Positions 4,009 to 62,187 of a stretch of 64,000 nt of DNA are shown here, in pieces. The notes beneath the pieces are model-generated. The model saw only the letters and a list, made by a program, of their open reading frames with translations, was not told the origin of the DNA and ran no database searches. The first letter of the stretch is position 1. Each line of letters starts with the position of its first letter. Source of the DNA: a virus; IMG/VR virus record IMGVR_UViG_3300011980_000002, positions 1 to 64,000 of that record, one strand, 5' to 3'. Made by a program: the position numbers and the translations under genes.

Positions 4009-4073
4009 ATTTTTTAATCAAAAATATCTGGAATATTCGGATTGAGCTGATTTTTTATCAATTTCTCTATAAT

Positions 4074-5408: not shown

Positions 5409-5612
5409 GTGAAATGCATGGACGATAATATGTGTAACGATTTAATGATCAATATGATAGATAGGATATTAGAATTGTCTGAATATATTGATCATGATAG
5501 ATGTATGAGTAAAAAAGATTATAAGAAAAGAATTAAGTATTTAAAGAAGATTAAAAAGAAAATAGAGAAAGGTGGAATATATGCATATAGTAAAGAAAGA
5601 AATTATCCATGA
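5409..5612 (+). CDS. Hypothetical small basic protein
   Basis: 67-aa ORF with a GTG start after AAAGGTG. Its stop overlaps the next start (ATGA). Confidence 0.4.
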   Translation: MKCMDDNMCNDLMINMIDRILELSEYIDHDRCMSKKDYKKRIKYLKKIKKKIEKGGIYAYSKERNYP

Positions 5613-6163: not shown

Positions 6164-6194
6164 TTAAGAAAAGAAAGGAAGTTAGAGAAATTCA

Positions 6195-6809: not shown

Positions 6810-6846
6810 TAATTATTATAATGGATAAAAAAGGAGAAAAAGAAAT

Positions 6847-7164
6847 ATGAAAATACGTTGCTTTTATTTAAAATCAAATGATAAGAATAATTTATATGCT
6901 GTCACTATTGATAGAAGTACAGCTAGAGAATTTATGAATAGTAGAGATATGAGTAAATTTATATTTGATGAAATGGAAATTCCTAATGATGATGCCAAAG
7001 ATTTTCTATTGAAAAATGAGTATTGTGAGTTAAGACATAAAATTCTGACTGATATAGATATGGAGTCTCAAAGAGTTGTAGTTATGACAAAGAAGGAATT
7101 TTCATTATTGAAGAATTATACATATCAAGAGTTCTCTGAATTACATAAGGATTTATTAAAGTAA
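6847..7164 (+). CDS. 'LYAxT' paralog family member 3 (short form)
   Basis: IRCFYLKSNDKNNLYAVTIDRSTAREFMNSRDM. Confidence 0.6.
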   Translation: MKIRCFYLKSNDKNNLYAVTIDRSTAREFMNSRDMSKFIFDEMEIPNDDAKDFLLKNEYCELRHKILTDIDMESQRVVVMTKKEFSLLKNYTYQEFSELHKDLLK

Positions 7165-7166
7165 TC

Positions 7167-7745
7167 ATGATATTACATAGATTTTATTTATATGATAAAA
7201 ATATGAGTAAGAAAGATTATATGAAACTTACTAACGGAAGTAATGATAGGAAGCATCTTTATGCTGTTACTACTAATAATAAATTTTATAAAGAATTTAT
7301 TAAGGAAAGAAATATGGATATTTTCATCCATATAAAGAGTAGAGTGAGTAAACAAGAAGCTTCCTATTATATTAATAATCATTACTCATGTAATTTATCT
7401 AGGAATGAATTAGCATATTACCCATATAAATCTAAAAATGATAAATATCGAGTAGATACTCAGGTATTATGTACTAATACAGAAATAGAATCTGTAAGAA
7501 CTATTTCCGATATGTATTACTTAACATTTAATGGAAATTTATCAGATTTCATAAATCCAAAAATATTTAAAGAAGAATATCTTCATAGTTTAATTATGTT
7601 AGATTATTTAACATTAATGAATATTTCTGGAGTAGTAAATTTTCATAACTCATATGATGGTAATTCTGAAATTCCGGATTTACCATCCATATTATTAGAT
7701 GAATTTATGATATTCATAGATTTATATGGGAAGTTATATAAATAA
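7167..7745 (+). CDS. 'LYAxT' paralog family member 4
   Basis: LHRFYLYDKN...KHLYAVTTNNKFYKEFIKERNMDIF. Confidence 0.6.
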   Translation: MILHRFYLYDKNMSKKDYMKLTNGSNDRKHLYAVTTNNKFYKEFIKERNMDIFIHIKSRVSKQEASYYINNHYSCNLSRNELAYYPYKSKNDKYRVDTQVLCTNTEIESVRTISDMYYLTFNGNLSDFINPKIFKEEYLHSLIMLDYLTLMNISGVVNFHNSYDGNSEIPDLPSILLDEFMIFIDLYGKLYK

Positions 7746-7802
7746 CTATATCATTCGACAATGATATAGTTATTTTTTTTATATAGAAAGGTAAATTTTA
7801 TT

Positions 7803-8465
7803 ATGAGTAAAAATAATATAGACATTATAAAATTACCAAAGACAGAAAATATGGAATATAGTGTAGATTATGAAACTCCAAAGTCTAAAAGGAAGTTTAT
7901 TGAAAGATGTAAAAGAACTATAAGGAAGTCTAAAGAGTATAAAGATTATATAAGATTTTTAAAAGATAATCTTGATATGGATAGATGTGCATTCTTTAAC
8001 CAGGTTCATAAAAATAAAGGTATGAGAGTATCTATAGAAATACATCATGAACCATTTGTATTAGAAGACATCGTACAGATTATTATAGAGAAACATCTTC
8101 ATGAAGGAATTACTTTAAATGAATTAGAAATTGCTGATGATGTAATGAAATTACATTATGAGAATAAAGTAGGACTAATTCCTTTATCTAAGACTTTACA
8201 TGAGTTATATCATAATACTACAGGGGAAAATAAATTATTCATTCCAATTTATATGTGCTATGGTAATTATGCAGAATTCATTAAAGAGTATTGGGATTAT
8301 ATGGATGACCAATTAAAGCTTAAAATAGAGAAAAAAATAGAAGAGTCTAAGAATGTAAAACCGGAAGACTATGAAAAACTATTGGAAGCAAAGTTCCAAT
8401 ATATAGAAATGGATGGTGTAGATTTACCAAAGAAGATGGAAATAGAAGAAGAAATGATAGCATAA
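7803..8465 (+). CDS. Conserved His-motif protein, paralog of 52470..53123
   Basis: It shares the pattern Y..Y(I/A).LK......(R/K)C......(V)SIE(I/M)HH.P with the other copy, plus later H-rich positions (LHELYHN vs VHEEVHT). This may be a metal-binding or HNH-like fold. Confidence 0.55.
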   Translation: MSKNNIDIIKLPKTENMEYSVDYETPKSKRKFIERCKRTIRKSKEYKDYIRFLKDNLDMDRCAFFNQVHKNKGMRVSIEIHHEPFVLEDIVQIIIEKHLHEGITLNELEIADDVMKLHYENKVGLIPLSKTLHELYHNTTGENKLFIPIYMCYGNYAEFIKEYWDYMDDQLKLKIEKKIEESKNVKPEDYEKLLEAKFQYIEMDGVDLPKKMEIEEEMIA

Positions 8466-8466
8466 A

Positions 8467-8523
8467 AATAGATGATATAGATAACTTTAGTTTACATATA
8501 CTAAGTTATCTATATCATCTATT
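8467..8523 (+). terminator. Hairpin terminator
   Basis: 21-nt arms aatagatgatatagataactt / aagttatctatatcatctatt, followed by a T-rich tail. Confidence 0.6.
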
Positions 8524-8715
8524 CTATTTTTTGTTAAAAATTATCTATTCAATATTTTTTGTTTATAAAGAAAAGTGTGAGAATATGTTAGTAGGGAAAA
8601 ATAATTCCATATTTAATATTCTTTTATTCAGATGTTATAAATATATATTATTAAAATAGATGCTTAGATTGCCTTAGAATAGGACAAATAGAAAGGAGCT
8701 AGTTTAAGAATAATT

Positions 8716-10089
8716 ATGAGCGGTATTATATTTAATGCCTCTAAAACAAAAGTAATCGTAGACCCAGAAACTGGAGAAGAAATAATAGAAGAACCTAAAG
8801 TCCAAGAAAGGTCTAATGATATAGAGGTAAAGAAAAATAGATTTAGATTTAATGATGAGAAAAGAAAGGAATTAGAAGAATTATATTCAACAGTGGTAGT
8901 TAGAGATTTTGAAGATAATTACCATAAGAAAATTACTACAACATCTCAAGATGTAATTGATGCATATAAGACTATTGGAAGGATGAAATCTAAGTATAGA
9001 AATATCGAAGAGTATATTGTGGTAATGAGAAAATGTGTAGATTTCTTAAAAGTAATTGCTTCTAAGAATACCCTTATTATGAAACCAGAAGAATTTGTAT
9101 CACGAGCATTAAAACGAAAGATACAAATATTTGGTTTTAACCCACCAAAATATATTGGTAGTGATAGAAAAGATATTAACTGGAATGAGGTTGCTAAGTA
9201 TGTATGTGATAAATCATTAGACCCAAATGATTTATCTATACGTAGTAAAGAAATATCTTATTTGGAAGATGATGAATTTGAATCAGATGAAGCAAGACTA
9301 AAGCATTATTTCTCACCAGACCAAATTAAAGAAATATTTGGTAAGAAGATTAATCATTCCGTTACAATGGGATATGATGAAGACTTAGATAAGAAAGGTC
9401 TCGGTTTAGTAACAGCATTCTCTAAGAAAGAAATTAAGAGAATGAATAAAGATATGCCTGAGCTTAATAGAATAATTAAAGATTATAATAAGAAGATGAG
9501 AGCTGAGGATAATCTATTACAATATGCGTATGAGATAGAATCTGATGCATTTGATATTATAAGAAAGATGGATGAGAAGAGAGGATTCTTTAAGAAAGAC
9601 AAATTACCAAAGTTCAAAGGTAAGTTAACATCTAGTAAAGATATTAAGAGATATCTTTATGAATTAGAGAAGTATAGAGAGGAACATGAGTATGTAAATT
9701 ATCGTGGTAATATGATGACCTTGGAAGAATACAATGATGCTAAGACTAAAGATAAGTTAGATGAAGCAGGTTGGAATGTAAGAAAGCTCTATAGAGATAA
9801 AGCTGAGGAGAAGAAACAAAAAGAAGATGAGAAAATGTATAGAGCTAAAGAGAAGAGGTTAAAGAAGAAGTTAGAGAAATTAGATATGAAATACAAAAGA
9901 GAAACAGGTCAGCCATTAGATGAGTATTATATTAATAAAGAAAAGAAGAAAGCTAAAAAGAAATCTAAGAAAAAAGCAGATAGATTTGCCGATTTAGCTA
10001 GTAAAGAAGTATCTAATGGAAAGCATAAATCATTCTCTGAATATGAAGAAGAGATGATGAATATGACTTGGTCTTTTGGAAAGGAGTAA
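8716..10089 (+). CDS. Hypothetical K/E-rich protein, 457 aa
   Basis: Long ORF with GAAAGGAG upstream. The C-terminal third is highly charged and looks coiled-coil-like. Confidence 0.6.
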   Translation: MSGIIFNASKTKVIVDPETGEEIIEEPKVQERSNDIEVKKNRFRFNDEKRKELEELYSTVVVRDFEDNYHKKITTTSQDVIDAYKTIGRMKSKYRNIEEYIVVMRKCVDFLKVIASKNTLIMKPEEFVSRALKRKIQIFGFNPPKYIGSDRKDINWNEVAKYVCDKSLDPNDLSIRSKEISYLEDDEFESDEARLKHYFSPDQIKEIFGKKINHSVTMGYDEDLDKKGLGLVTAFSKKEIKRMNKDMPELNRIIKDYNKKMRAEDNLLQYAYEIESDAFDIIRKMDEKRGFFKKDKLPKFKGKLTSSKDIKRYLYELEKYREEHEYVNYRGNMMTLEEYNDAKTKDKLDEAGWNVRKLYRDKAEEKKQKEDEKMYRAKEKRLKKKLEKLDMKYKRETGQPLDEYYINKEKKKAKKKSKKKADRFADLASKEVSNGKHKSFSEYEEEMMNMTWSFGKE

Positions 10090-28935: not shown

Positions 28936-31900
28936 TTAATAATCATCTTCTCTGAAATTAGTTTGTCTAATCTCTTCTTCTACATTGTAGTTTAACATCA
29001 ATCCACTATTTACTAAATCAGATCTTAATCCCATTCCTATTAGATAGGTATCTACCGTATTTAGTGTAGTTTTATTTTTTACATCATAAGTTAAATCTTG
29101 ATATCTTACATATCCATTAGTAGCAATCTGTTGCATCATTTCATACTTAGCAACTCTATCATCTGCTCTAGGACCATTTAGTTCTTTTAATGTATCTTCC
29201 AATCCAACTGATACCATTAAGATATTCTCTAAGTCAGTTTCTCTACCATTCTTATCTCCACCAGTAACCTGTCCAGTTAATTCAGATACACTTGTACTAT
29301 TAATACTCATACCATTTTTCTTCATTACTGTCTGTTGTGTTCTCTTAATATGGATATATCCAACTGGTACAGGATTTTGTGTTCCAATTACCATATCTTT
29401 ATCCATAGTCATATGAGGCAAATATACAGTTTCAAATAATGGTATCTTAAGTACATTGGCAGCTCTTTCAATATCTTCTATCTTCATAGTATGCTCATAA
29501 TCAACTATATCCAATATAAGATATTCTTTATCGTTATTAAAGAACTCTTTAAAGAATTTATTAAACTCAGTATCTTCCATACCATCAAATATACCTTTAT
29601 ATTTTTTGGTATTAGTACCAGACTTATCAAAAGCTGTGAAGAATTTATATATTAAATCTTCCATATTCTTTCTTACAGCCGGACTAAATGGAGCTGATTT
29701 ATAAATCTTCTCTAATGACCTTTTTAGTTCTACAATACATTTATTTCCTAAACACATAACGATTATAGATGGTACCATACGTTTAAGAATAGAGTTAGAT
29801 GCAATTATAGTAGATATTTCTTCATCTGGTCTAAATTCACCATATGGTTCATAACCCTCTGGAACTATTTCTCCTATAGTATTTTTAAGAGCAGAGAAGT
29901 TAGCTATCTTACTACCAACCTCTAACGGCTCACTATGTTTAATGTAGAATTCTACTAATACGGAATCATCTACTTTATTACCTTTAATTACTCCATACTT
30001 AGATGGTTTAATAGCACCAGTAGGGTCTGTTATTAACATACCACATTTATAGATACTATCGGACTTGTCATACTTATCAAGTAATTTCTTTTTATCACTT
30101 ACCTTATCATAGTACTTCTTAATTATCTTTCTTAAAGATGGAGACATCTCTTCTAATTCTACAGTAGAATACACTTTAATATCTTCTATAACTCCACTAT
30201 ATTTAGATTTAATAATATTCTTACTACCAGCATCGATAGCATCTTTTATAGTAGGGTCTTTAGATAGAGTATCTAAGAAAGCATTCAACGATGCATCTTC
30301 AAATGAAGTGTCAAACTCTAATAATGAATCTCCAATTTGTATATGGTCTCCAACTTCTACCATTTTAAGTATATTGGAATTCTTACCGATATTAGCAGCT
30401 TTTTGGAATGTCATTTCTGTACTAGCTTCTCTTGCTAATTTGTGAGTAATAAATGTGGAGTCTTCCAATGTGTTATAAGTAGACATTAGTGCTACCTTAG
30501 TTAAAGTACCCAAGTTTAATCTACATCCATTGATATCTGACTTAGTAAAGAAATCTTTATTCCACGCTAATGGTTGATTAACTGTAAATTTCTGTCCTAC
30601 CTTTAAATCTGTAGTTAGTATATTAGACTCATAGAAACCACCACCACCATTCTTAACTATAACTGGAGCTAAGTTAATGGCTTGATGTTCCCCATTCTTA
30701 TATTCTACTACCATGATTTTTTTATTCTCATCTATCTCTAATACTTTACCATTATCTTTAGCATTAACAACAAAGTCTGTAGATAGATGATAACGACAAG
30801 CTTCCTCTACACCATTAGAAATTAATACAGGAGAAGAATTCTCTACTGGGATAACATGCTTAGACTGCTTTATAGCATGACCAATTCTTATTGGGTCATC
30901 ATATGTAGCTGCTGTAGGCATAGTTAATTCACCAGGACTAAATAAGTTAGCATCTTTTAAACTATCCAAATCTTTATCATCAGTCACCTTCATATAACCT
31001 CTAACTGAAGTTATATTAGGTTCTAAGGTTAGTACTCTACTAACACCTACTGAAGCATCTGGAGATGATATTGGTGATAGAATACCAGTCATTGTCTTAT
31101 CATAACATCTCTTAGGTACACTATAAGCATCGTCTAAGTTTATACCTCTCCAACCTTTATAAGAAGTAGTTCTACATCTTTCTAATTCTTGTACAGGGTT
31201 AAGTGTAGAATAATCTTCTACATTAGGAGATGATAATAATTTAGTAATTACACTATCTCTTGGTATATTAAATTTCTTTCTACCATTAGAATTCTTATAT
31301 GTGATATAATTCTTAGCTATTGTATCATATAATATAGCAGGAATAGTTTCTATAGACCTTATTCTTGCTAAATTTTGATTCATCTCAAAAGTATATTGAT
31401 TATCTGCTAATAGCTTAACTGCATATATTATAAGACTAACTATATCAGTAGGAAGATTCATATCGGTTAAGATTTCTTTAGTAATTGGGTCTATAGTAAA
31501 TTCATAAGTATTATCTAATGCATTAGCGATAGACATTTTTCCATATACTTGTAAGAATAATCTTAAATATGGTTCACTACTATCCATGTCTGCAAATGTA
31601 TATTTTTCAGTCTCTATAACTCTTAAACCATTGATCATTAAACCATATTCAGGTTTATCTTGGTATATCATATAACAATCACTAAACCTTATATAATTTT
31701 CATTAATCTTTAAATCATTAGGTTTCTTATCTGATATACGATATTCAAGATTCATTTTCTTAAGTACTGTAGACAATCCTTCCCATGCGCTACATAACAT
31801 AATCGCAGGTAAGTCTTTACCCATAGTCTTAATCTTTCCATACATTAATCTTTTTCCAGGTTTAACTGTTTTATATTCTTTAATTAATGCTTCATCATTA

Positions 31901-33879
31901 GTAGAGTTAAATATTAAATCTACTATACCTAAATCATCATCAGTAGTCTGAGTTTCTAAATCTATATAAACAGGTTTACCTTCACTAAACCCAATTAACA
32001 GTTTTCCTTCAGGTACTTTAATCTTCTTTAAAGCAATTTGTTTATATATATCTTCTTGACTGAAGAATATCTGTAATTTAGGAGATTTATATGCCCAGAA
32101 TATTTTAGATAATTCATCATACTCTATAGTGGTAATTCTATTATTATTCGTAACCATAGCATTACCCATTTCAAATCTCTTAGCAAAATCACTATTCTTA
32201 GCTAATATCTTTTTAAGTATAGCTATAGAAGATAATGTCTTAATATCTACTCTTCTAACGAACATCTTATTATAGTTAGTAACTATCTGTACAGTATCTT
32301 CTCCGGTTTTTACTAATGGTAAAAGAAACTCTTGGTTCATTATAAGTTTCTTATTACCACCTAAATACATAAATTTATTATCTATGAATTTAGGTATATC
32401 AAATTTCATAGTAGTTCTTTGTCTATTACCATCTTCTAATTCTACAGTGTATGTATCTACATAGTTAAGTTCATCTGATGTATCTTCTACTTTAATATTT
32501 CTTATAAAGATAGGTAATGATTTATCTGATAATGATGTTATTGCCTCAGATATATCTTTAGGCATTACTTTCTCTATATAAGTCTTATTATGATTAACAA
32601 ACTTAGACTTAGCCATATTTTTATTAGTAGACTTAATATGGTTAGATATATCGGTAGATGGTATTTCTACTTTATTAGTATTTAATTCATGTAAAGCTTT
32701 TAATGTCATATTACCAAGCATTATCTTCTCTTGGTTCTTTCTTAGTAATTCATCCCTAGCTGTACTTGCAGTAGACTTGGCTACTGTCTTTTTACCAAAT
32801 GAAGATTTATATAATTTCTCTATAGCTTTATTATCTTCTTCAGTAGCCATTTCAACTTCATTAGCGATAACTTCTTCTATTTCATCATCACTAGAGTTTT
32901 TAGCTACATCAGAACTCATTATTTTCTCTTCAACATCTTTAATCTTATCTTTAATGATATTAGCTACTTCTTTATCATCATCTTCAGTTTCTTCTTCCTC
33001 TTTATTATACTCCTCTAAATCAGTAACTTCATTTGGGTCTTCATTAATATCAGTATCTTTATCACCAGTAACTCTTTGCTTAATATTAGATACAATAGTA
33101 TCGTGAAGTTCATCCTTATTGATAGTCTCTTCATCAAGTTCTTTCTCTATACTAATATTAGCAGTTCTGTATAATCTCTTAAGTTCTGTCATTAATGTCG
33201 TATATGACTTATCATCACATTTTGATGGGTTAACTCTTACCGTATGAAGTTTATTAAAGATATAAAAATCTAAATTTATATCTTTAATTAATTCAGGTCT
33301 TTTAAGTAAGGTATAATATAACATATACACAGGATTATCTATTAATTCAATCACTCTTCCTTTAATGATATTCCTAAAGTTATTAATGTCTATTAATACC
33401 ATCTTCTCATTATACTTCTTTATTCCTGGAGTATTGAGAATTCCTTTAAAATAATCCCAGAAAGTTTCCATTTTAACTCTTGGTAATAATTTTTTAGTAA
33501 ATGTCTTATATATTTCAAAATACTTACTAAAGTCAAAGAATGTATTCCTATTCATATCATTCATATTAATATCTTGATATGGATAAGGATGTATAGAAGT
33601 TTTATTTTCTATCTCATTCTTAAATTCTCTTTTCTTGTTAAGTAAGTTTATATTATAGACTTTATGATATAACTTACCTCTATATCTTAATGGATAATAA
33701 TAATATTTATAATTATTGGTAGCAATATAATTGGTCTTATCATTAATGATATTAAACGACTCATTTCTGTTATTAGTCATTAATATAATAATATTATCTT
33801 TACCCATTGGATTTCCATTAGGTAAGGTTACCTTTTTTCTTGTAAATTTTAATTCAGGTATATCCTTTGGAGTTATCAT
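28936..33879 (-). CDS. Multisubunit RNA polymerase beta-like subunit, full-length (N and C halves fused), with a long acidic N-terminal extension
   Basis: NPVQELERCRTTSYKGWRGINL...GILSPISSPDASVGV matches the bacterial beta pattern NPL.E..H.RR.S..GPGGL...GR.CP.ETPEG.N.GL. DPIRIGHAIKQSKHVIPV matches the beta pattern NRALMG.NMQRQAVP. LTGQVTGGDKNGRETDLENILMVSVGLEDTLKELNGPRADD matches the beta C-terminal pattern QP..GK..FGGQRFGEME.WAL.AYGA...L.E.L...SDD. Confidence 0.75.
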   Translation of the reverse strand: MITPKDIPELKFTRKKVTLPNGNPMGKDNIIILMTNNRNESFNIINDKTNYIATNNYKYYYYPLRYRGKLYHKVYNINLLNKKREFKNEIENKTSIHPYPYQDINMNDMNRNTFFDFSKYFEIYKTFTKKLLPRVKMETFWDYFKGILNTPGIKKYNEKMVLIDINNFRNIIKGRVIELIDNPVYMLYYTLLKRPELIKDINLDFYIFNKLHTVRVNPSKCDDKSYTTLMTELKRLYRTANISIEKELDEETINKDELHDTIVSNIKQRVTGDKDTDINEDPNEVTDLEEYNKEEEETEDDDKEVANIIKDKIKDVEEKIMSSDVAKNSSDDEIEEVIANEVEMATEEDNKAIEKLYKSSFGKKTVAKSTASTARDELLRKNQEKIMLGNMTLKALHELNTNKVEIPSTDISNHIKSTNKNMAKSKFVNHNKTYIEKVMPKDISEAITSLSDKSLPIFIRNIKVEDTSDELNYVDTYTVELEDGNRQRTTMKFDIPKFIDNKFMYLGGNKKLIMNQEFLLPLVKTGEDTVQIVTNYNKMFVRRVDIKTLSSIAILKKILAKNSDFAKRFEMGNAMVTNNNRITTIEYDELSKIFWAYKSPKLQIFFSQEDIYKQIALKKIKVPEGKLLIGFSEGKPVYIDLETQTTDDDLGIVDLIFNSTNDEALIKEYKTVKPGKRLMYGKIKTMGKDLPAIMLCSAWEGLSTVLKKMNLEYRISDKKPNDLKINENYIRFSDCYMIYQDKPEYGLMINGLRVIETEKYTFADMDSSEPYLRLFLQVYGKMSIANALDNTYEFTIDPITKEILTDMNLPTDIVSLIIYAVKLLADNQYTFEMNQNLARIRSIETIPAILYDTIAKNYITYKNSNGRKKFNIPRDSVITKLLSSPNVEDYSTLNPVQELERCRTTSYKGWRGINLDDAYSVPKRCYDKTMTGILSPISSPDASVGVSRVLTLEPNITSVRGYMKVTDDKDLDSLKDANLFSPGELTMPTAATYDDPIRIGHAIKQSKHVIPVENSSPVLISNGVEEACRYHLSTDFVVNAKDNGKVLEIDENKKIMVVEYKNGEHQAINLAPVIVKNGGGGFYESNILTTDLKVGQKFTVNQPLAWNKDFFTKSDINGCRLNLGTLTKVALMSTYNTLEDSTFITHKLAREASTEMTFQKAANIGKNSNILKMVEVGDHIQIGDSLLEFDTSFEDASLNAFLDTLSKDPTIKDAIDAGSKNIIKSKYSGVIEDIKVYSTVELEEMSPSLRKIIKKYYDKVSDKKKLLDKYDKSDSIYKCGMLITDPTGAIKPSKYGVIKGNKVDDSVLVEFYIKHSEPLEVGSKIANFSALKNTIGEIVPEGYEPYGEFRPDEEISTIIASNSILKRMVPSIIVMCLGNKCIVELKRSLEKIYKSAPFSPAVRKNMEDLIYKFFTAFDKSGTNTKKYKGIFDGMEDTEFNKFFKEFFNNDKEYLILDIVDYEHTMKIEDIERAANVLKIPLFETVYLPHMTMDKDMVIGTQNPVPVGYIHIKRTQQTVMKKNGMSINSTSVSELTGQVTGGDKNGRETDLENILMVSVGLEDTLKELNGPRADDRVAKYEMMQQIATNGYVRYQDLTYDVKNKTTLNTVDTYLIGMGLRSDLVNSGLMLNYNVEEEIRQTNFREDDY

Positions 33880-47607: not shown

Positions 47608-48891
47608 GGAGATCTTGATACTAAACCCGGTGTTGCAGCACAATCAATTCTCGATAAAACTGTAAGATGGCATGACTCATTTTATGATAAAACATATACA
47701 GAAATTAAAGAATTATTAGATGCAAACAGGTCTAATGGTATTCTTTATATAGAGTATCATTATAATCAAATTGGATTAACGAACGAATGGTTAAAGAATA
47801 TATCTGATAAAATTGGTAATATGCTTACTGTAAGAAGAGAGATTCTCTTACAGAGAATGCATGGTTCAGATTTATCACCATATTCAAGAGAGTCTATAGA
47901 ATTCATTATGAGTTCTAAATGTGAACCTGTCGACCAGTTATTTATTAATGAGTATTTCATGTTTGATATTTATGAGCCATTAAAAAGGACTATTCCTTAT
48001 ATAGTAGGTATCGACTGCTCTACTGGTACAAGTTCGGATAATAATGCAATTACAATATTAAACCCTTATACAGTAAGACCTGTGGCAGAGTTTAAATCTC
48101 CATATATCGGAGAAACGGATTATGAAAACCTAATAGAAACATTGGTGTTAGAATATATTCCAAGAGCTATAGTATGTGTAGAGAGAAACCATGTTGGGGA
48201 TAGTATAATTGACCACTTATTAAATAAGTCAAGGATTGCTAATAACTTATATTTTGATAAGGATAGAGATTTAGTAGAAGCTAAGATGAGAGAAGCAGAA
48301 ACTGTAGAGTCAATGCTTAAAGCTAAGTCTAAAATAAAAACTACATATGGTGTATATACAACCGGTAAGTCAAGAGAAACGATGTTTGCAATACTATCAA
48401 GAAGAATTGAAGAGAATAATGAAGATTTCGTTACTGCTCATATTATTGATGATATTGCTGGTTTAATAAGAACTCCATCTGGTAAAATAGAAGCAAGACC
48501 TGGTGGACATGATGATAATATTATGTCTTACTTAATTGCGATGTATATTTATACTCATGGAAATAACTTAGCATACTTTGGTTTTTATAAGACAGATTTA
48601 TATGAAGATGTAGAAGAGAATCAAGGTATTATTACTTCTGATAGAGCTAGGGGTGTTCTTCCTAATGAAGTCGTATCGTCTATAGAAATTGAAGAAGAAA
48701 AAGATAGGATTCTTAATTATGAAGATATATTAAGAACTGCTATAAGTAATTCTCAACAAGGTTCTATGAGATTACATAGAAGTAGTGTTGGTAGTGATAA
48801 TCATTTTGATAATACACCAAATGGAATTGTTGAAGAAGAGTACTTTGAAGAATTGAATATGGATATATTTGATACACTTAATGGATTCTAA
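47608..48891 (+). CDS. terL: Large terminase, exon 2 (end of ATPase domain plus RNase-H-like nuclease domain)
   Basis: The acidic nuclease-type motifs IVGIDCSTGTSSDNNAITI and GGHDDNIMSYLIA are present. There is no independent SD or ATG; the track start at 47605 is a TTG inside the intron end. Confidence 0.75.
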   Translation, partial: GDLDTKPGVAAQSILDKTVRWHDSFYDKTYTEIKELLDANRSNGILYIEYHYNQIGLTNEWLKNISDKIGNMLTVRREILLQRMHGSDLSPYSRESIEFIMSSKCEPVDQLFINEYFMFDIYEPLKRTIPYIVGIDCSTGTSSDNNAITILNPYTVRPVAEFKSPYIGETDYENLIETLVLEYIPRAIVCVERNHVGDSIIDHLLNKSRIANNLYFDKDRDLVEAKMREAETVESMLKAKSKIKTTYGVYTTGKSRETMFAILSRRIEENNEDFVTAHIIDDIAGLIRTPSGKIEARPGGHDDNIMSYLIAMYIYTHGNNLAYFGFYKTDLYEDVEENQGIITSDRARGVLPNEVVSSIEIEEEKDRILNYEDILRTAISNSQQGSMRLHRSSVGSDNHFDNTPNGIVEEEYFEELNMDIFDTLNGF

Positions 48892-53285: not shown

Positions 53286-54416
53286 ATGTTACAAGCAGGA
53301 GTAATAGGAATAGGAAATGCAGGAAGCCAGGTAGCAGTTTTAGCTGCACAGAATAATATTAAATCTGTAGTTATTAACTCATCTGAGAATGACTTAGCAG
53401 TAATCCCAGAATCTGTTCATAAGTTCCTAGTAGGTGACTCAAGAGGAGCCGGAAAGAACAGAGACGCTGCTAAAGGATTTTTAAAGAGTTCCATAACTTC
53501 TATTCTTAATAAAGAAGATTTCATGGAGTTTATGGATGGAAATGATGTTACTTTTGTAGTATCATCAACAGGTGGTGGAACCGGTTCAGGTATTGCACCA
53601 ATAATGACAGAGATTTTATCTCAAGCATTTCCGGATACATTTGTTATACTTGTGGGTATATTACCTACATTAAATGAGGCATATTCAACACAGGTTAATA
53701 CTGTGGCATTTGTTAAAGAGTTATATGAGAAGATTAATAAACCAACTTATATGCTCTATGATAATGAGAAGATGTCTTCAGAACCATCTCATATCATGAT
53801 GGAATCTATCAATCAGTCTATTATAGAAGATATATTAGTATTGGTTGGTAAGTATAATTATGCTACCAAATATTCTTCTATAGATGAGAAAGATATGTCT
53901 ATGATAATATCTACTCCAGGAAGATTGGTAGTATCAAGACTGGTCAATTTCAAAGAGAAAGATTTAGACCAGTCAGGTATTGATAGTAGAGTTGAAGATA
54001 TTCTCAAGAGTAACACTCATGCAGAACTTCAAAGAGATAAGGTTATTAAGAGAAGTGGAGTTATCGCTAATCTTAATGAGTCTATAGCATCTAAGTTCGA
54101 TGACCATATGACAACCTTGCAGAAGTTCGTTGGTGTTCCGGTAGAAGAATTTACCCATATTTCTATCAATGTGGAGAAAGCATTACCTAATAATGTATTC
54201 TTCATTGGTTCTGGTTTATCTCCAGTATTTGATAGATTAACCAAGATTAATGAAAGAATAGAAGAGATTGATGCTTTACAAAATGATAGTGAGAATATCT
54301 CAGATGCACTATCATCTGTAGATATGGATAAAGCTAATGAAAAGAAAGATTATAGACAGAAGAAAGATAATGATGCACCATTAGCTCTGTCAGATATATT
54401 CAAGAACTTTTCATAA
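53286..54416 (+). CDS. Tubulin/FtsZ-superfamily GTPase (PhuZ/TubZ-like phage cytoskeletal protein)
   Basis: The N-terminal nucleotide loop is GVIGIGNAGSQVA. The tubulin signature is SSTGGGTGSGIAPIM. The T7-like segment is SSIDEKDMSMIISTPG. There is an acidic linker and a hydrophobic C-terminal peptide, LALSDIFKNFS. Confidence 0.8.
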   Translation: MLQAGVIGIGNAGSQVAVLAAQNNIKSVVINSSENDLAVIPESVHKFLVGDSRGAGKNRDAAKGFLKSSITSILNKEDFMEFMDGNDVTFVVSSTGGGTGSGIAPIMTEILSQAFPDTFVILVGILPTLNEAYSTQVNTVAFVKELYEKINKPTYMLYDNEKMSSEPSHIMMESINQSIIEDILVLVGKYNYATKYSSIDEKDMSMIISTPGRLVVSRLVNFKEKDLDQSGIDSRVEDILKSNTHAELQRDKVIKRSGVIANLNESIASKFDDHMTTLQKFVGVPVEEFTHISINVEKALPNNVFFIGSGLSPVFDRLTKINERIEEIDALQNDSENISDALSSVDMDKANEKKDYRQKKDNDAPLALSDIFKNFS

Positions 54417-56655: not shown

Positions 56656-57153
56656 ATGAAAAAAGCTAAAGTAGCCAGAATTAATCTGGGTGGAAAGAAC
56701 ATCATAGAGTTTCAAACATCTATGCTTAATAAGCATGGAGAACTTAAAGGTAGAAATAAGAAGGAAACTGCTCTTCTTAGAGATACCTGTATGCATCATA
56801 AGAAAAATAAGAAAGGTAAGAATAAGTCAAGAGTAGAACTTGAGGATGGTCAAGCTTGCTGTGCAATGTGTCAGGCAGAGTTTAGAGCTCAACCATATAG
56901 TAAATCTGAGAGAAAAGAAGTAATTGGTGAGGGTAAAGAACTCGCTAACCATACTAAGTTCATGGCAGCAGCTTGTGGAGCTGATGAACAGACTCTTAGG
57001 ACATTAGCAGAAATCTCTGTAGGACTTACTAATCTTGGTAAGATAAATAAATCCTTAACCAAGATAGTATCTAAAGAAGATGCTATTAAGAAGAAGAATA
57101 AGAAGAACAAAGGTAATACTTCTGAAAGCTTAGGAAGCTGGAGAATAAGGTAG
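56656..57153 (+). CDS. Basic Cys/His-containing protein (possible zinc-binding nucleic-acid binder)
   Basis: 165 aa, K-rich, containing CMHH...CCAMC. By eye its GC content is noticeably higher than its surroundings. Confidence 0.5.
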   Translation: MKKAKVARINLGGKNIIEFQTSMLNKHGELKGRNKKETALLRDTCMHHKKNKKGKNKSRVELEDGQACCAMCQAEFRAQPYSKSERKEVIGEGKELANHTKFMAAACGADEQTLRTLAEISVGLTNLGKINKSLTKIVSKEDAIKKKNKKNKGNTSESLGSWRIR

Positions 57154-57264
57154 TAAATTTTGTAGGGTAGTTATAATAAGGGTACTTGATTTATATTGAG
57201 TACCCTTATAAATAAATACATTATTTTTTTTTTATGTGATCCCATATAAGATTTTCATTATAAT

Positions 57265-57290
57265 GATATAATATTAATGTGAGTAACTGA
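57265..57290 (+). promoter_or_regulatory. Class-1 promoter-like motif (variant) at the start of an ORF-free region
   Basis: gatataatattaatgtgagtaactga compares with tatataatattaatttgtaataaaa at 58790. Confidence 0.3.
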
Positions 57291-57675
57291 TAAAAATATA
57301 ATACTAATATATAAATATCCTGAGATGGATAACTATTATAGAAATGAATATAATAGTCTTATTTAATTGATCAATCGTGAAAATCAATTAAGTATAGTTA
57401 CTCCTTTCCATTATAAGATTTATGTAATCTTATATGTCCAGATGAATTAGATAAGTTTCTCCTTTAAAGAAATAATAATGAGAAACATAGATTCACAATA
57501 ACTCCAGAAAAAGACTATATATATTTTATTTTACACCTGTTGAATGCTGTTAATATAAGTCTTTAAATTTATCTAAATCATCTGAAGAATACTAACATTC
57601 GAAGTTAAATAAAAACAAGGCAATCACATTCCTGACTTGTATTTAACAGCATTCAACACAAATTCTAAATCAATA

Positions 57676-57716
57676 CAGATACTACTTCAAATAGTAGTAT
57701 CTGTTTATTTTTTTTT
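57676..57716 (+). terminator. Hairpin plus T-run, closely related in sequence to the terminator at 58733
   Basis: cagatactact / agtagtatctg, followed by tttattttttttt. Confidence 0.65.
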
Positions 57717-57720
57717 GATT

Positions 57721-57745
57721 TATATAATATTATCATGTAACAATA
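57721..57745 (+). promoter_or_regulatory. Class-1 promoter-like motif (variant)
   Basis: tatataatattatcatgtaacaata lies upstream of the leader TTTAAAGGAGAAAGAAATTATG. Confidence 0.35.
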
Positions 57746-57773: not shown

Positions 57774-58696
57774 ATGAGAAATAACAATCAAGCAACGAGA
57801 GAGAAATTGTATAATATCATTGATATGATGATAAGCAATGGGGATATAAAAGATACCCTCGAGATACATGTCATATATGACAAATTGAAAAAATGCTGTG
57901 ATAATATTGCTGAAAAGATCGCTGATAAGAAATATGAGGTAACTGATATTACTGAATACAGGTCTGAACGTGAGGTACATCGTATAAGAGTGTTAAAAGA
58001 TTTTGGGATGTTAAGAAAGGTGATTTAGGTGGATTTGTATCTTCCTATGATAATCTTTCACAATACGGTGATTGTTGGATATATGATGACGCAGTTGTCA
58101 TGAGTGAAGCAAATATTATCGAAGATGCTAAAATTAAAAATAACGCTACTATATGTGGAACGGCTGTAGTGAGAGGAGATTCTGTAATACAAGATGATTG
58201 TGAGGTATATATGCAATCAATAATAAATGATTCTTATATGTCTGGAAATTGTTGTTTATATAATGTGGAAGTTCATGACAGCAAACTCGAAGGCTGCCTA
58301 TATCTAAATCAATCCAGTATACAGAAAAGTAATATAATAGCAAATGACGCCAGAATACATAATAAAACTTTTATACATGACTCTAAACTTAAGTTAGCTG
58401 ATGATAGTGATATTTATAAAAGCTATATAGATAGGTCAACTATACAAGGATATATTACACTAAATAATGTTGAGTTGAGCAATAGTAAAGTTATTAATAA
58501 AGATGAAGAAGTCTATATTGCTGATAAAATTATTGACGGTGCTAATGTAACAAGTACTAACACTATTACATCATTTTCATTAGATTTATACGATAACCAA
58601 GAAGAATGTGATATAGTCTTCTATAAAAATAGAAATGGTAACACCACTATTACTATATCTCACAAATCTGGTGTTCACGATTCTATTGAAATTTAG
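57774..58696 (+). pseudogene. Left-handed beta-helix (LbH) array gene 1, disrupted by a 1-nt deletion near 58005..58008
   Basis: The gene reads gattttgggatgttaagaaagg where its paralogs read gattttggagatgt(t/g)aagaaagg. The frame-1 ORF ends at 58028 (..RVLKDFGMLRKVI*). The reading continues in the next frame as GDLGGFVSSYDNLSQYGDCWIYDDAVV into track ORF 58100..58696. Confidence 0.6.
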
Positions 58697-58732
58697 ACAT
58701 CTGGTATAAAATCTAGTAAGTAATACAATAAT

Positions 58733-58771
58733 AACGGATACTACTTCAATAGTAGTATCCGTTATTTTTTT
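58733..58771 (+). terminator. Hairpin plus T-run
   Basis: aacggatactact / agtagtatccgtt, followed by attttttt. Confidence 0.65.
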
Positions 58772-58785
58772 ATAATATTAAAGTT

Positions 58786-58814
58786 ATCTATATAATATTA
58801 ATTTGTAATAAAAT
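58786..58814 (+). promoter_or_regulatory. Class-1 promoter-like motif
   Basis: tatctatataatattaatttgtaataaaa. Confidence 0.4.
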
Positions 58815-58840
58815 AATATTATATTAAAGGAGAAAAAAAT

Positions 58841-59812
58841 ATGGAAAAGAATAATAGTATTAATAATAAATACGAAATAACCGATATTGTCGGTTATAGG
58901 TTTAAGAAGAAAGTATATCGTATAAGAGCATTAAAAGATTTTGGAGATGTTAAGAAAGGAGATTTAGGTGGTTTTGTATCTTCCTATGAAAATCTTTCCC
59001 AAGAAAATGACTGTTGGATATATGATAACGCAGCAGTTATGGATAATGCTATATTAGAAGACAATTCTACTATTCATAATAGGGTCATCGTGTGTCATGA
59101 TAGTATTGTCCGTTGTAACTCTAAAATTTCCAAAAGTTGTAGAATATATGACTCTACTAAGATAACAAATTCTACAATATCTGGTAAATCCGTATTAAGG
59201 AATATTAATATAGTTGGAAGTACAATAAATGGAGTTATTCTCTCATACAAAGGTAATGTGTGGATCGAGTACTCTACTATCAGGGGTTCACTATTATTAA
59301 GTGAATCATTAATTTTTAATAGTAAGATTATTTCAGATAGAGCTTCTATATATCAAGACTCGGTAATTATGAGATCGAATATAAGATTATTAAATGGGTC
59401 AGATATATATAGTTCATGGGTATATGAGTATTCTAATATATATGCTAATCTCAAATTACATAATAGCAAGATATATAGATCCGATATTATTGGTGATATT
59501 AATAACATGATTAAAATTGTAAATAAACGAGTAGAGATGGGATATATTACATGTACAGAAGATATCATATCACTTTCAGTTGACATAAATACGATAGGTT
59601 TTGATACATTCAATTATTACCCATCTATTAATTGCCGGAATACTAGAAATATTAAGCTCATAATATCAACACAACTTACATATTATAATAACATAGATGA
59701 TGTAATTAAATCCATTAGTGAACATATGGGAACATCTGCTCCTGCTTATTTTGTAAAAACGCTTAGAAACTTTGACAAGCTCGCTAAAGAATATTTTAAT
59801 ATCACTGAATAA
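58841..59812 (+). CDS. LbH array gene 2 (type B)
   Basis: It has the conserved module NKYEITDIVGYRFKKKVYRIRALKDFGDVKKGDLGGFVSSYENLSQENDCWIYDNA. This is followed by six-residue periodicity (AVMDNA ILEDNS TIHNRV IVCHDS IVRCNS KISKSC RIYDST KITNST ISGKSV), which is typical of hexapeptide left-handed beta-helices. Confidence 0.65.
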   Translation: MEKNNSINNKYEITDIVGYRFKKKVYRIRALKDFGDVKKGDLGGFVSSYENLSQENDCWIYDNAAVMDNAILEDNSTIHNRVIVCHDSIVRCNSKISKSCRIYDSTKITNSTISGKSVLRNINIVGSTINGVILSYKGNVWIEYSTIRGSLLLSESLIFNSKIISDRASIYQDSVIMRSNIRLLNGSDIYSSWVYEYSNIYANLKLHNSKIYRSDIIGDINNMIKIVNKRVEMGYITCTEDIISLSVDINTIGFDTFNYYPSINCRNTRNIKLIISTQLTYYNNIDDVIKSISEHMGTSAPAYFVKTLRNFDKLAKEYFNITE

Positions 59813-59832
59813 ATTAAAGGAGAAAAAGAAAT

Positions 59833-60909
59833 ATGGAAAAGAATAATGAAATACTAAATGAGAATAGGTTAACCGAGAAAACAATTAGCCCTGAAGATTA
59901 TCATAAGCTACTATTAATGCTTGATGATGATAGAAAGAAATTCGTGAACGATCCGATAGATAAAGTCGTTAATATTAATAACAAATATGAGATAACTGAT
60001 ATTGTAGGTTATAGATTTAAGAAGAAAGTCTATCGTATAAGAGCATTAAAAGATTTTGGAGATGTGAAGAAAGGTGATTTGGGTGGATTTGTATATTCTT
60101 ATGAAAACCTTTCTCAAGATGACAACTGTTGGATATACGATAATGCAGTTGTTATGGAAAATGCAACTGTTATCACAGATGCTAAAATTAAAGGTAATGT
60201 TACTGTATATGGAGAAGCTGTAGTAAGAGGAAATTCTATAGTAGAAGATAGTTGTTGGATATATGGGGAATCTTTTATTGTGGATTCTCATATATCTGGA
60301 AAATGCCGTCTATGTGATACAAAAGTTGATAGAAGTAGACTTAAAGGATATATATTAGACATACTCAAAGGTTCCCTTATACAAGATTCATATATTAGAG
60401 GTTGTTTATATCTAAAGTCTTCAGATATTACTAGAAGCAATGTAATATCCGATACTGCGTATATATCCGGTAGGACTTATGTATCAGGTTCTAAGCTTAG
60501 ACTGATGAGAGATAGTGATATTTATAAATCCTACATATCCATGTCATCAACTATACGAGGTTATGTTAAATTAGATTGTGCTAAGTTAGTTAGAAGTGAA
60601 TTCGTTAACATAAAAGAAGAAATTTATGTTAAGAATAAAACTATTGCTGATGGATATATCACAAACACTAATGACGCTATATCATTCTCGGTAGATTTAC
60701 ATGATAAGAAAGAAGAGTATGAGCTATTCTTCTATAAGAATAAAGGTGGTAATATTGTTATATATTACAGATTCTGGATATTTGACTCTATTGATAAACT
60801 GATATCACATATAAAAAATAATAATAAGTCTAATGATAATATTAAAGCCATTGAAGTATTCAGGTATTTTGATAAGGTTGCTAGGGAATATTTTGCTACC
60901 AATAAATAA
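59833..60909 (+). CDS. LbH array gene 3 (type A, closest to the pseudogene copy)
   Basis: The same conserved module follows a 49-aa N-terminal extension. The C-terminal ISFSVDLHDKKEEYELFFYKNKGGN aligns with ITSFSLDLYDNQEECDIVFYKNRNGN of gene 1. Confidence 0.65.
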   Translation: MEKNNEILNENRLTEKTISPEDYHKLLLMLDDDRKKFVNDPIDKVVNINNKYEITDIVGYRFKKKVYRIRALKDFGDVKKGDLGGFVYSYENLSQDDNCWIYDNAVVMENATVITDAKIKGNVTVYGEAVVRGNSIVEDSCWIYGESFIVDSHISGKCRLCDTKVDRSRLKGYILDILKGSLIQDSYIRGCLYLKSSDITRSNVISDTAYISGRTYVSGSKLRLMRDSDIYKSYISMSSTIRGYVKLDCAKLVRSEFVNIKEEIYVKNKTIADGYITNTNDAISFSVDLHDKKEEYELFFYKNKGGNIVIYYRFWIFDSIDKLISHIKNNNKSNDNIKAIEVFRYFDKVAREYFATNK

Positions 60910-60929
60910 TTCAAAGGAGAAAAAGAAAT

Positions 60930-62135
60930 ATGGAAAATAATAGGTCTACTGAAATTAAAGACTTAAAATTCGAGTTAGAGAATTTAATGGTTAATAATGA
61001 TAATATTAAAGAGTTGGGAGACTATATTCACAAATTATCCGGTATATTATTATCTAAAACGATACTAATGAATGAATTATACAACTATTCCGGTGATAAT
61101 AGAAATTATCAAAAATTATTAAGTGAAACTAAGAAAATATCAAAACTTATAATAAGAGCTCAAGATAGAATAGCTCTATTAGATACTCATTATTCCAATA
61201 ATAAATATGAGATAACTGATATTGTCGGTTATAGGTTTAAAAAGAAAGTATACCGTATAAGAGCATTGAAAGATTTCTCAGATGTTAAGAAAGGTGATTT
61301 AGGTGGATTTGTATCTTCCTATGAAAACCTTTCACAATATGGTGATTGTTGGATATATGACAATGCTGCTATTATAGATAATGCTCTATTAGAAAATGAT
61401 TCTACTGTGCATAATATGACTATCGTGTATGATAATAGTATTATTAGAGGGGAATCTAAAGTATATAATAGTACTAGAATATGTGGAAGTTCATATATAA
61501 ATAATTCTAACATATTCGGCAAATCATTTCTAAGAAATGTGTTTATACAAGGTAGTGGAATAAAAGGAAATCTGATAACTGATAAAAATAAATCAAGTAT
61601 TATTTGCTCATATATCAGAGGTTCATTATCTTTAAGAGGTTCTCTTATTTCCGGTTCCAGTATTATTTCTGACATGGCGAATATATATCAGGGTTCATCA
61701 ATAATTAAATCAAATCTGAGATTGTGTAAAAATTCTCATATCAATAACATCTATATGGAGAATTGTGCAACTGTGTGTGGTAAAATGATGTTAAAAAATA
61801 CTACTATAACAGATTCTAAAATAAATGGTAATAATGATAATGAAATTAAAATCATAAATAAGAGAATACTTCATGGATGTATCAAAGATACAAATGATGT
61901 TATCTCACTATCATTAGATGTTGCTGGTGCTATTACAGATTCTACTGATAAATTATGTTATTATAGGAACGAAAATGATAAATTGTATATATCATTTTAT
62001 TTCTCATACTTTAATTCTATTGAAGCTGTAATTGAATTTATAAAAGATCAACAGAGAGTATCATTTACTGAAGATTATATAGAGTTATTGAGACAGTTTG
62101 ATAAGGTTGCACAAAATCATTTCAATAGTAACTAA
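60930..62135 (+). CDS. LbH array gene 4 (type B)
   Basis: The same conserved module follows a 90-aa helical extension. The beta-helix region aligns best with gene 2 (DNALLENDSTVHNMTIVYDNSIIRGESKVYNSTRI vs DNAILEDNSTIHNRVIVCHDSIVRCNSKISKSCRI). Confidence 0.65.
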   Translation: MENNRSTEIKDLKFELENLMVNNDNIKELGDYIHKLSGILLSKTILMNELYNYSGDNRNYQKLLSETKKISKLIIRAQDRIALLDTHYSNNKYEITDIVGYRFKKKVYRIRALKDFSDVKKGDLGGFVSSYENLSQYGDCWIYDNAAIIDNALLENDSTVHNMTIVYDNSIIRGESKVYNSTRICGSSYINNSNIFGKSFLRNVFIQGSGIKGNLITDKNKSSIICSYIRGSLSLRGSLISGSSIISDMANIYQGSSIIKSNLRLCKNSHINNIYMENCATVCGKMMLKNTTITDSKINGNNDNEIKIINKRILHGCIKDTNDVISLSLDVAGAITDSTDKLCYYRNENDKLYISFYFSYFNSIEAVIEFIKDQQRVSFTEDYIELLRQFDKVAQNHFNSN

Positions 62136-62145
62136 TTTATATGAT

Positions 62146-62187
62146 AAAGAAGATAAACTAATATAGTTTATCTTCTTTATTTTTTAT
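62146..62187 (+). terminator. Hairpin plus T-run ending the LbH array
   Basis: aaagaagataaact / agtttatcttcttt, followed by atttttta. Confidence 0.6.

Follow-up and report, generated by a model that had tools for sequence, protein, structure and literature searches.

A tandem array of predicted YdcK-like beta-solenoid genes with a conserved head and divergent bodies in an uncultured jumbo phage

YdcK of Salmonella and E. coli (PDB 2F9C and 2PIG; NCBIfam NF040481; Pfam PF18836) is a protein in which an N-terminal head is followed by a beta-solenoid, and it has been classed among the trimeric LpxA-like proteins (PMC4372379). Here, we analyzed a tandem array of four paralogous genes whose products are predicted to begin with the same head and to continue into a solenoid. 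The array lies on the + strand at positions 57774-62135 of a 64,000-nucleotide (nt) stretch, positions 1 to 64,000 of the virus record IMGVR_UViG_3300011980_000002 in IMG/VR; this whole stretch is called the window below. YdcK is the sole solved relative of the array proteins and their top fold match, but the match is limited to the first ~100-190 residues and to 67-73 bits as against 350, and the solenoid of the phage proteins is shorter. The phage proteins also differ from YdcK in their variable N-terminal extensions, in a different alpha/beta C-terminal domain, and in their arrangement as a tandem array.

The same head-plus-solenoid plan is found in phage proteins of PHROGs 5070, 7964, 20149, and 5353 (E values, 1e-30 to 1e-36), which are often multi-copy or fused and are encoded in early or accessory regions. 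Examples are Sfi19 orf229, Liberibacter SC1 gp145 and gp150, Bacillus KLEB27-3 gp175 and gp176, and Lactobacillus LfeInf_002. Compared with these proteins, to which identity is ~30-45%, the clade of the window has its own C-terminal domain (FDKxAxxxF), long extensions, and an ABAB gene order beside gyrase genes. The acyltransferases with a left-handed beta-helix (LbH), namely LpxA, LpxD, and the C-terminal domain of GlmU (PF00132), have in common with the window proteins an imperfect hexapeptide-type repeat and probably the solenoid fold, whereas the window proteins lack both a conserved catalytic His and substrate loops, give no clear above-threshold match, and vary in helix length. Pentapeptide-repeat proteins (Qnr, MfpA, and AlbG) form solenoid rods and exert their effect through binding instead of catalysis; some of them are encoded beside topoisomerase genes. 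They are acidic DNA mimics with a five-residue repeat, whereas the window proteins have a repeat of ~5.7-6 residues and are mostly basic. Bactofilins (PF04519) form beta-helical rods of similar coil size, and some homologs of the array proteins have been automatically named after them, but the window proteins do not match bactofilins, which lack the YdcK head. Bactofilins are right-handed. The family is thus already catalogued (PF18836, YdcK_fam, several PHROGs, and a structural-genomics structure), and the array is a new member of it.

The genes and their parts, as taken from the list of open reading frames (ORFs), are as follows.

57774-58696, + strand: gene 1 (type A, acidic, with orthologs of 307 residues), present as the ORF pieces 57774-58028 and 58100-58696
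57774-57926, + strand: N-terminal extension of gene 1
57927-58093, + strand: module of gene 1
58841-59812, + strand: gene 2 (type B, 323 residues), with an 8-residue leader, the module at 58865-59032, the solenoid, and the C-terminal domain at 59519-59809
59833-60909, + strand: gene 3 (type A', 358 residues), with a 49-residue helical extension, the module at 59980-60147, the solenoid, and the C-terminal domain at 60631-60906
60930-62135, + strand: gene 4 (type B', 401 residues), with a 90-residue extension, the module at 61200-61367, the solenoid, and the C-terminal domain at 61854-62132

The predicted proteins are built of a variable helical N-terminal extension, a head of ~56 residues, a solenoid of ~170 residues, and an alpha/beta C-terminal domain specific to the clade. 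The head is the module that a preliminary description of this DNA had reported in all four genes, and a tblastn search located it at 58865, 59980, and 61200 and as a split copy at 57930-58126 in gene 1, with no copy elsewhere in the window. The different lengths of the extensions in the three intact genes (8, 49, and 90 residues) were also recovered. The genes paired by helix type as had been described, because the nucleotide identity of the helix was 61-72% between genes 1 and 3 and 57-68% between genes 2 and 4 as against 49-54% for the cross pairs; the order of the array is therefore ABAB. The head comprises a beta-hairpin cap and the first coils, and its consensus, KKYELT..LYRIxALKDFGDVKKGDLGGFVExxxNLSQxGNCWIYDNA, is the signature of the whole family; the part ...ALKDFGDVKKGDLGG..NLSQxGxCW... 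is homologous to residues ~25-100 of YdcK. The strict six-residue periodicity that had been ascribed to the region behind the head turned out to be approximate, as the hydrophobic autocorrelation reached z values of 1.0-3.6 at lags 5-6 (2.0-3.6 at lag 6). Weaker and uneven peaks, with z values of up to 3.5, occurred at lags 11-12 and 17-18 in genes 1-3, and gene 4 had peaks at lags 5-6 alone. These lags suggest solenoid coils of ~17-18 residues.

The resemblance to YdcK, which the preliminary description had proposed, was borne out by profile and fold searches. The NCBIfam model YdcK_fam (NF040481) matched genes 2-4 with E values of 1e-18 to 2e-20 (73.1, 71.3, and 67.1 bits, below the equivalog cutoff of 350), and the matches spanned profile positions 23-129 in genes 2 and 3 and 23-214 in gene 4, that is, the head and the first coils. 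In a phmmer search, YdcK (PDB 2F9C) matched a window protein with an E value of 2e-9, and 2F9C was also the sole match of the module profile in the PDB at E ≤ 1 (E value, 2e-19). The Pfam model PF18836 (B_solenoid_ydck; threshold, 30 bits) matched gene 3 alone among the window proteins, at a below-threshold 17.2 bits, and it was passed by distant homologs (74 bits for P0056 and 35.5 bits for KLEB27-3 gp176). Genes 2-4 matched PHROG 5070 (E values, 5e-35, 5e-36, and 1.5e-33) and PHROG 7964 (6.5e-30 to 4e-34), and PHROG 20149 was matched with E values of ~1e-15 to 1e-16; all three of these PHROGs are annotated as "unknown function".

An AlphaFold2 (AF2) model of the gene 3 protein, with a predicted local distance difference test (pLDDT) score of 74 overall and 85-96 in the module, contained a beta-hairpin cap, a solenoid, and a C-terminal beta-sheet with two helices. 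When this model was searched with Foldseek, 2PIG (E value, 3.9e-4; the top match) and 2F9C (7.5e-4) were the sole PDB matches at E ≤ 0.001, with template modeling (TM) scores of only 0.25-0.30, and a fold search of BFVD returned family members alone. The C-terminal domain modeled alone (pLDDT, 75) was again a beta-sheet with two helices, and it had no significant match in the PDB, the best being Spc24/25 and SH2-like folds at E values of ~0.1 or higher. Together, the profile and fold matches indicate that the window proteins are YdcK-like single-chain beta-solenoids in a broad sense and not YdcK equivalogs.

In an alignment of 77 homologs, the conserved residues were confined to positions 51-117: K51, Y52, T55, R68, I69, A71, L72, K73, D74, F75, G76, D77, V78, K79, G81, D82, G84, G85, N92, L93, S94, Q95, C99, W100, and a few hexapeptide alanines. 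No His was conserved in this alignment, and past residue 117 it contained one isolated conserved alanine column only. These data bear on the possibility that the proteins are LbH acyl- or acetyltransferases that modify a sugar nucleotide, a cell wall precursor, DNA, or a host protein, which we consider unlikely. The Hexapep model (PF00132) gave marginal matches, with 27.3 bits for gene 2 (cutoff, 27), 22.5 bits for gene 1, 18.4 bits for gene 3, and 11.4 bits for gene 4. Weak NCBIfam matches to GlmU, LpxD, and NeuD (E values, 1e-3 to 1e-6), the filing of YdcK with the trimeric LpxA-like proteins, and record names of homologs such as "glucosamine N-acyltransferase" also point toward an enzyme. 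However, neither a His nor any other helix residue is conserved among the 77 homologs, and the GlmU-, LpxD-, and NeuD-type matches reach 20-27 bits, far under the curated cutoffs of 160-700. The module profile matches YdcK alone in the PDB, and no acyltransferase is found in the Foldseek top 50. Moreover, the length of family members, from ~110 residues (a head and a few coils) to more than 600 residues, implies that no fixed helix-borne active site is kept. By these criteria, the window proteins are not recognizable as LbH acyltransferases; no characterized acyltransferase family claimed them in the profile searches.

The head and the helix differ strongly in their constraint. Among genes 2-4, the module is 87-88% identical in nucleotides and 91-95% in amino acids, and the corresponding values for the helix are 51-61% and 34-46%, so that the excess of module identity over the rest of the gene reported earlier is real. 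The modules of these genes differ by 0.03-0.045 nonsynonymous substitutions per site (dN) and 0.66-0.96 synonymous substitutions per site (dS), with a proportion of synonymous differences (pS) of 0.44-0.54, and the helices have a dN of 0.47-0.68 and a dS of at least 1.0. Between orthologs, the dN/dS ratio (omega) was 0.03-0.06 for the module, ~0.1 for the gene 4 extension, 0.35-0.5 for the helix, and 0.23-0.5 for the C-terminal domain. The same head occurs in phages of Streptococcus, Liberibacter, Bacillus, Lactobacillus, Vibrio, Xanthomonas, and Bacteroides, and it is conserved over the 77 diverse homologs and thousands of clusters. A nucleotide identity of ~87% is about what fixed amino acids and nearly saturated silent sites would give. 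The high dS of the module with its tiny dN, together with the conservation of the head across unrelated phages, indicates that family-wide purifying selection, and not recent homogenization, is the main cause of the likeness of the heads.

The preliminary description had attributed this likeness to gene conversion, and concerted evolution through recent conversion within the array was weighed as the other cause. The contrast in nucleotide identity between the module and the remainder of the genes and the demonstrable recombination in the module are in its favor, as is the second half of the gene 1 module, which is closer to gene 4 (93%) than to its own orthologs (89-90%). However, the silent divergence of the window modules is high while their dN is low, the modules of paralogs within a genome are no closer than those of genes in different genomes (83-93% in both cases), and the same head is present in phages of unrelated hosts, beyond the reach of conversion. 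Concerted evolution is therefore quite unlikely; the recombination part of the proposal stands, and the homogenization part does not.

Evidence for recombination came from related contigs, in which a tubulin gene, three ORFs, the array, and gyrB-gyrA follow each other in the same order. The tubulin gene, which lies three genes upstream of the array, is kept in all of these contigs. The copy number of the array, which the preliminary description had suggested comparing among related phages, varies (1, 3, 3, and 4 genes). The tubulin gene of the window and the arrays of the relatives are as follows.

53286-54416 of the window, + strand: PhuZ/TubZ-like tubulin gene (Pfam Tubulin E value, 9e-15; Tubulin_2 E value, 2e-7)
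L003: array of 307, 323, 313, and 401 residues
L002: array of 307, 369, and 401 residues
L095-L098: array of 307, 310, and 396 residues
L011: single gene

By their helices, the genes cluster by orthology with 89-100% identity, and the modules are 83-93% identical whatever the orthology. In four ortholog pairs, the silent differences were accordingly counted separately for the module and the helix.

W3-Y3: 17 of 32 in the module, 2 of 109 in the helix (p = 2e-11)
W2-Y2: 9 of 32 in the module, 6 of 103 in the helix (p = 0.0015)
W4-X4: 16 of 33 in the module, 18 of 103 in the helix (p = 9e-4)
W1-X1: 15 of 33 in the module, 18 of 86 in the helix (p = 0.011)

The middle gene of L095 (Z3) is a chimera of genes 2 and 3. 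Over the first 8 codons it agrees completely (100%) with gene 2 of L003. In the module, it shares 92-93% identity with gene 2 (dS, 0.32-0.34) and 85-88% with gene 3 orthologs (dS, 0.7-1.2), whereas its helix is of the gene 3 type. This chimera is the product to be expected if unequal crossing-over in the module had reduced four genes to three. Because orthologs differ silently more in the module than in the helix, and because of the L095 chimera, recombination in the module is considered real, and it scrambles orthology instead of homogenizing the array. The loss of gene 2 from L002 took a different route, near a shared start consisting of a Shine-Dalgarno (SD) sequence and MEKNN, and the N-terminal extension of gene 3 has 49, 60, or 3 residues depending on the phage. 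The conserved head also acts as a patch of homology for unequal crossing-over and allele swapping, by which the copy number shifts (1-4 in the relatives), chimeras are made, and N-terminal extensions are exchanged. These comparisons indicate that the array evolves as a birth-and-death tandem family, of which gene 1 of the window seems to be in the process of being lost.

Gene 1 of the window is split by a deletion of 1 nt in a GGN codon at 58005-58007. The conserved tail FDK(V/L)A.(E/N)(Y/H)F, which had been described for the whole array, is present in genes 2-4 but absent from gene 1, which ends in ...SIEI. Since intact gene 1 orthologs of 307 residues in four related contigs share the ...SIEI stop, the absence of the tail is ancestral and only the frameshift is new. 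In the gene 1 sequence, the invariant A71 is replaced by V, the residue at the aromatic Y67 position by H, and an F by S, all at positions conserved in the family, and the omega of gene 1 against the orthologs is ~0.5-1. On the basis of these substitutions and this omega, gene 1 is most likely a decaying gene and not the result of a sequencing error. A programmed -1 frameshift was also considered, but TTT-GGG-A is not a canonical slippery heptamer and invariant positions are substituted, making decay the likelier explanation.

The family as a whole is very large. The module profile collected 13,504 clusters (50% identity) at E ≤ 1e-3, the weaker end of which may take in generic hexapeptide proteins, 10,279 clusters at E ≤ 1e-10, and 1,650 clusters at E ≤ 1e-30. 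At least 581 loci in IMG/VR encode a relative. Among the 79 IMG/VR loci that were fetched, 41 had at least two and 16 had at least four strong module copies within ±10 kb, with a median spacing of 718 nt, and 110 of 255 top proteins with a strong module match were fused double or triple units. Therefore, members of the family generally tend to multiply in tandem.

Homologs of 564-625 residues at L007 (a 328-kb contig, 2939-9755) and L008 (8001-10746) are internal tandem duplications, with two head-plus-solenoid units per ORF. These double-unit homologs are in turn members of clusters, each with 3-5 genes of the family, and the contigs are very large and phage-like. A Cas12f1-like TnpB gene adjoins one of the clusters, and a GmrSD_N gene adjoins another. 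In Vibrio phage 1.139.A (L093), the annotated "CRISPR spacer" features at 3656-3795 lie inside the repetitive solenoid of a family gene and may be an artefact of repeat finding.

In annotated small phages, the family gene is found among early, regulatory, replication, and recombination genes. For instance, Sfi19 orf229 of S. thermophilus stands ahead of the replication module, the family gene of Liberibacter SC1 follows the repressor near Bro-N, that of phiNJ2 adjoins Erf, and that of a Mannheimia phage adjoins RecT-exo, Ant, and a methylase. The copy examined in LfeInf (Herelleviridae) adjoins the terminal repeat, and LfeInf_002 is ~2 kb from a PnuC NMN-transporter gene. A census of 120 neighboring ORFs recovered helicases, antirepressors, and transcriptional regulators, and no structural genes were among its top 25 families. 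In Bacillus phage KLEB27-3 (L001, OM634661.1; 5126-9419), gp176 and gp175 are located between gp177, annotated as Prs, and gp174, which has NAMPT_N and NAPRTase domains. This layout is that of the NARP1 NAD+ reconstitution counter-defense operon as defined elsewhere (bioRxiv 10.1101/2024.02.11.579819), and metallophosphoesterases adjoin the NARP1-like operon of KLEB27-3. Among ~20 long homologs, one is fused to ART-PolyVal and one to HTH; two such fusions were too few to serve as a functional clue. The NARP1 context and the ART-PolyVal fusion are leads, not proof.

Our tentative reading, which we hold to be possible at somewhat less than even probability, is that the proteins are non-enzymatic accessory binders for host takeover or counter-defense, in which the constant head is the functional contact and the body can be diversified. 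The head would contact either a common ligand or a partner that has been conserved in very different bacteria, and the solenoid and the C-terminal domain would supply a rod-like body free to diversify. Several paralogs might broaden or back up an activity in host interaction. The constant docking part with variable surface parts that the preliminary description had suggested is a reasonable hypothesis. The family sits in early or accessory regions, the usual place of anti-defense and takeover genes. The window and its sister phages provide a natural experiment, with the head constant, the body free, one to four copies, one datable chimera, and one dying copy, and this shows where mutation and pull-down work should begin. 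Should a single partner of the head prove to be universal, a new mechanism of phage-host interaction might well be at work in this family.

Several points weigh against this reading. In a literature search, no experiment or publication was found that assigns a function to any member, and the family is mentioned neither in the polyvalent-protein paper nor in the EVADES anti-defense catalogue. Known defense and anti-defense models in PADLOC gave no meaningful match, and a lone 16.5-bit match of Cas6 to the gene 4 extension was noise. No conserved partner gene stands beside the family in the census of 120 neighboring ORFs, and the NARP1 and ART contexts each rest on one anecdotal case. The helix omega of 0.4-0.5 would also fit relaxed constraint on a mere spacer, and the class of the promoter-like motif ahead of the array gives no timing of expression. 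The whole-protein AF2 model is only moderate (pLDDT, 74; TM score to 2PIG, 0.26-0.30), so that it bears little on handedness and oligomeric state. Finally, many conserved polar residues of the head (K51, T55, R68, K73, D74, D77, K79, D82, N92, S94, and Q95) might just as well belong to a catalytic or ligand site.

A bolder extension is rather doubtful, namely that head-plus-solenoid proteins form a large unrecognized class of phage effectors for host takeover or counter-defense, in which the nearly invariant head would bind a target or signaling molecule shared by very different bacteria, while tandem arrays and fused doublets would arise by unequal crossing-over in the head and so diversify the solenoid and the C-terminal body in an arms race. 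If it were true, the array would be a snapshot of this process, with four copies, one of them dying, and chimeras in sister phages. Taken alone, the window holds a well-behaved multigene family and not a new kind of system, and it is an entry point to a very large dark family.

The location of the array is relevant to the idea that the proteins are bactofilin-like rods, polymers or scaffolds that work with the PhuZ-like tubulin or organize replication or compartment structures. The array is three genes downstream of the tubulin gene, and its promoter-like motif recurs, with one mismatch, at that gene. In addition, homologs have been automatically annotated as "polymer-forming cytoskeletal protein" and reach 24-27 bits with the Bactofilin model of Pfam. 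The window proteins, however, have no Bactofilin match at E ≤ 1, most carriers of the family are small phages without tubulin, and a copy number of 1-4 among close relatives together with a decaying copy would be unusual for a core scaffold. A role as polymer or scaffold is improbable. A virion-associated role, either as a fiber or spike or as internal proteins injected with the DNA like polyvalent proteins, is very unlikely: beta-solenoids are common in tailspikes and one homolog is fused to ART-PolyVal, yet the Foldseek matches to tailspikes are non-significant (E values of at least 0.12), no tail protein has significant similarity, and in every context examined the genes are among replication, regulation, and early genes, never structural ones. 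The least credible proposal, that the proteins are solenoids which mimic DNA or modulate gyrase much as the pentapeptide-repeat proteins Qnr and MfpA do, draws on gyrB-gyrA lying immediately downstream of the array and abutting it in all relatives, on pentapeptide-repeat gyrase binders among the weak fold matches (E values, 0.2-0.7), and on the acidic isoelectric point (pI) of the gene 1 orthologs (4.8-5.0), and it was rejected on charge, because genes 2-4 are basic (pI, 8.4-8.7 overall and 8.9-9.3 in the helix) and the pI of the family is mixed (median, 5.6; 14% above 8). Other carriers, moreover, have no gyrase genes nearby.

The following putative transcription signals surround the array.

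57675-57704, + strand: intrinsic terminator upstream of gene 1 (12-pair stem followed by a T run), conserved in relatives and closing an upstream non-coding unit
57721-57740, + strand: promoter-like motif TATATAATATTAtcaTGTAA, 53 nt upstream of the gene 1 ATG
58730-58766, + strand: intrinsic terminator after gene 1 (16-pair stem followed by a T run)
58789-58808, + strand: promoter-like motif TATATAATATTAattTGTAA, 52 nt upstream of the gene 2 ATG
62143-62181, + strand: intrinsic terminator closing the unit of genes 2-4 (18-pair stem followed by a T run)

A terminator and a promoter-like motif thus stand before genes 1 and 2, and 20-nt Shine-Dalgarno spacers stand before genes 3 and 4. The three terminators and two promoter-like motifs suggest that gene 1 is monocistronic and that genes 2-4 form a predicted operon, which the motif TATATAATATTAattTGTAA would drive as a single unit. 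Both motifs ahead of the array units, and with one mismatch the motif ahead of the tubulin gene, contain the phage-specific promoter-like motif TATAATATTWNNNKGTAR. This motif occurs at 16 sites in the window as against 1.6 expected, and 14 of the 16 are on the + strand. Most sites are ~50 nt upstream of a start codon and ~25-35 nt upstream of a ribosome-binding site AAAGGAGAAA; example sites on the + strand are 28243, 35346, 36168, 38289, 50853, 51297, 51678, 53193, 57723, and 58791. The placement of the terminators and promoter-like motifs means that the intergenic repeats are out of step with the ABAB order. This matters for the earlier proposal that a two-gene unit was duplicated, which is in keeping with the similar divergences of A from A' and B from B' but is not uniquely supported, since the regulatory regions are not ABAB and relatives have 1-4 genes. 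As a sole history, duplication of a two-gene unit was inseparable from other orders of duplication.

The window has a G + C content of ~27% and encodes homologs of DnaB, UvsX, Dda, and SbcC as well as two multisubunit RNA polymerase beta-like proteins, whose genes are as follows.

28936-33879, - strand: multisubunit RNA polymerase beta/beta'-like gene
42585-44891, + strand: multisubunit RNA polymerase beta/beta'-like gene

The protein encoded at 42585-44891 is 31% identical to that of the Bacillus phages PBS1/AR9 and 29-30% identical to those of Staphylococcus jumbo phages. No close DNA relative of the window was found among 50,697 phage records. The gene 3 protein is identical to P0001, which is encoded on a metagenomic contig of 223,074 bp. 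Based on the 29-31% polymerase identity, the lack of a close DNA relative, and the size of this contig, the source of the window is taken to be an uncultured low-GC jumbo phage that is only distant kin of the AR9/PBS1 group. Between the second polymerase gene and the tubulin gene, an ORF at 46618-47430 (+ strand) with HNH_3 and NUMOD4 domains resembles homing endonucleases and overlaps the end of the ORF at 45669-46625. A terminase-like gene is located downstream of it at 47605-48891. The HNH_3 and NUMOD4 ORF may be a mobile endonuclease insertion.

Directly upstream of gene 1 is an ORF-free stretch of 620 nt with stops in all three + frames, in which the following candidate was found.

57262-57712, + strand: candidate structured non-coding RNA of ~430 nt, between the ORF at 56656-57153 and gene 1

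The candidate RNA region has the promoter-like motif GATATAATATTAatgTGAGTAAC at 57265 and the terminator at 57675-57704. In comparisons of the window with its relatives, ~400 nt of this region are 92-96% identical across four close phages and 72% identical to L011, and the identity of gene 1 is ~85%. Scans of the window against Rfam and for tRNA returned no match, and the candidate had no Rfam match even at E ≤ 1. The z value of its minimum free energy was -5.7 on the + strand and -4.3 on the - strand. The consensus structure, which was derived from the same alignment and represents approximately three independent lineages, had 98 pairs with 97.4% of cells paired and 10 compensatory pairs as against 1-2 in slid controls. 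These features suggest that 57262-57712 is a candidate for a conserved structured non-coding RNA. It also contains two CUCCUUU stretches complementary to the Shine-Dalgarno consensus of the phage, AAAGGAG.

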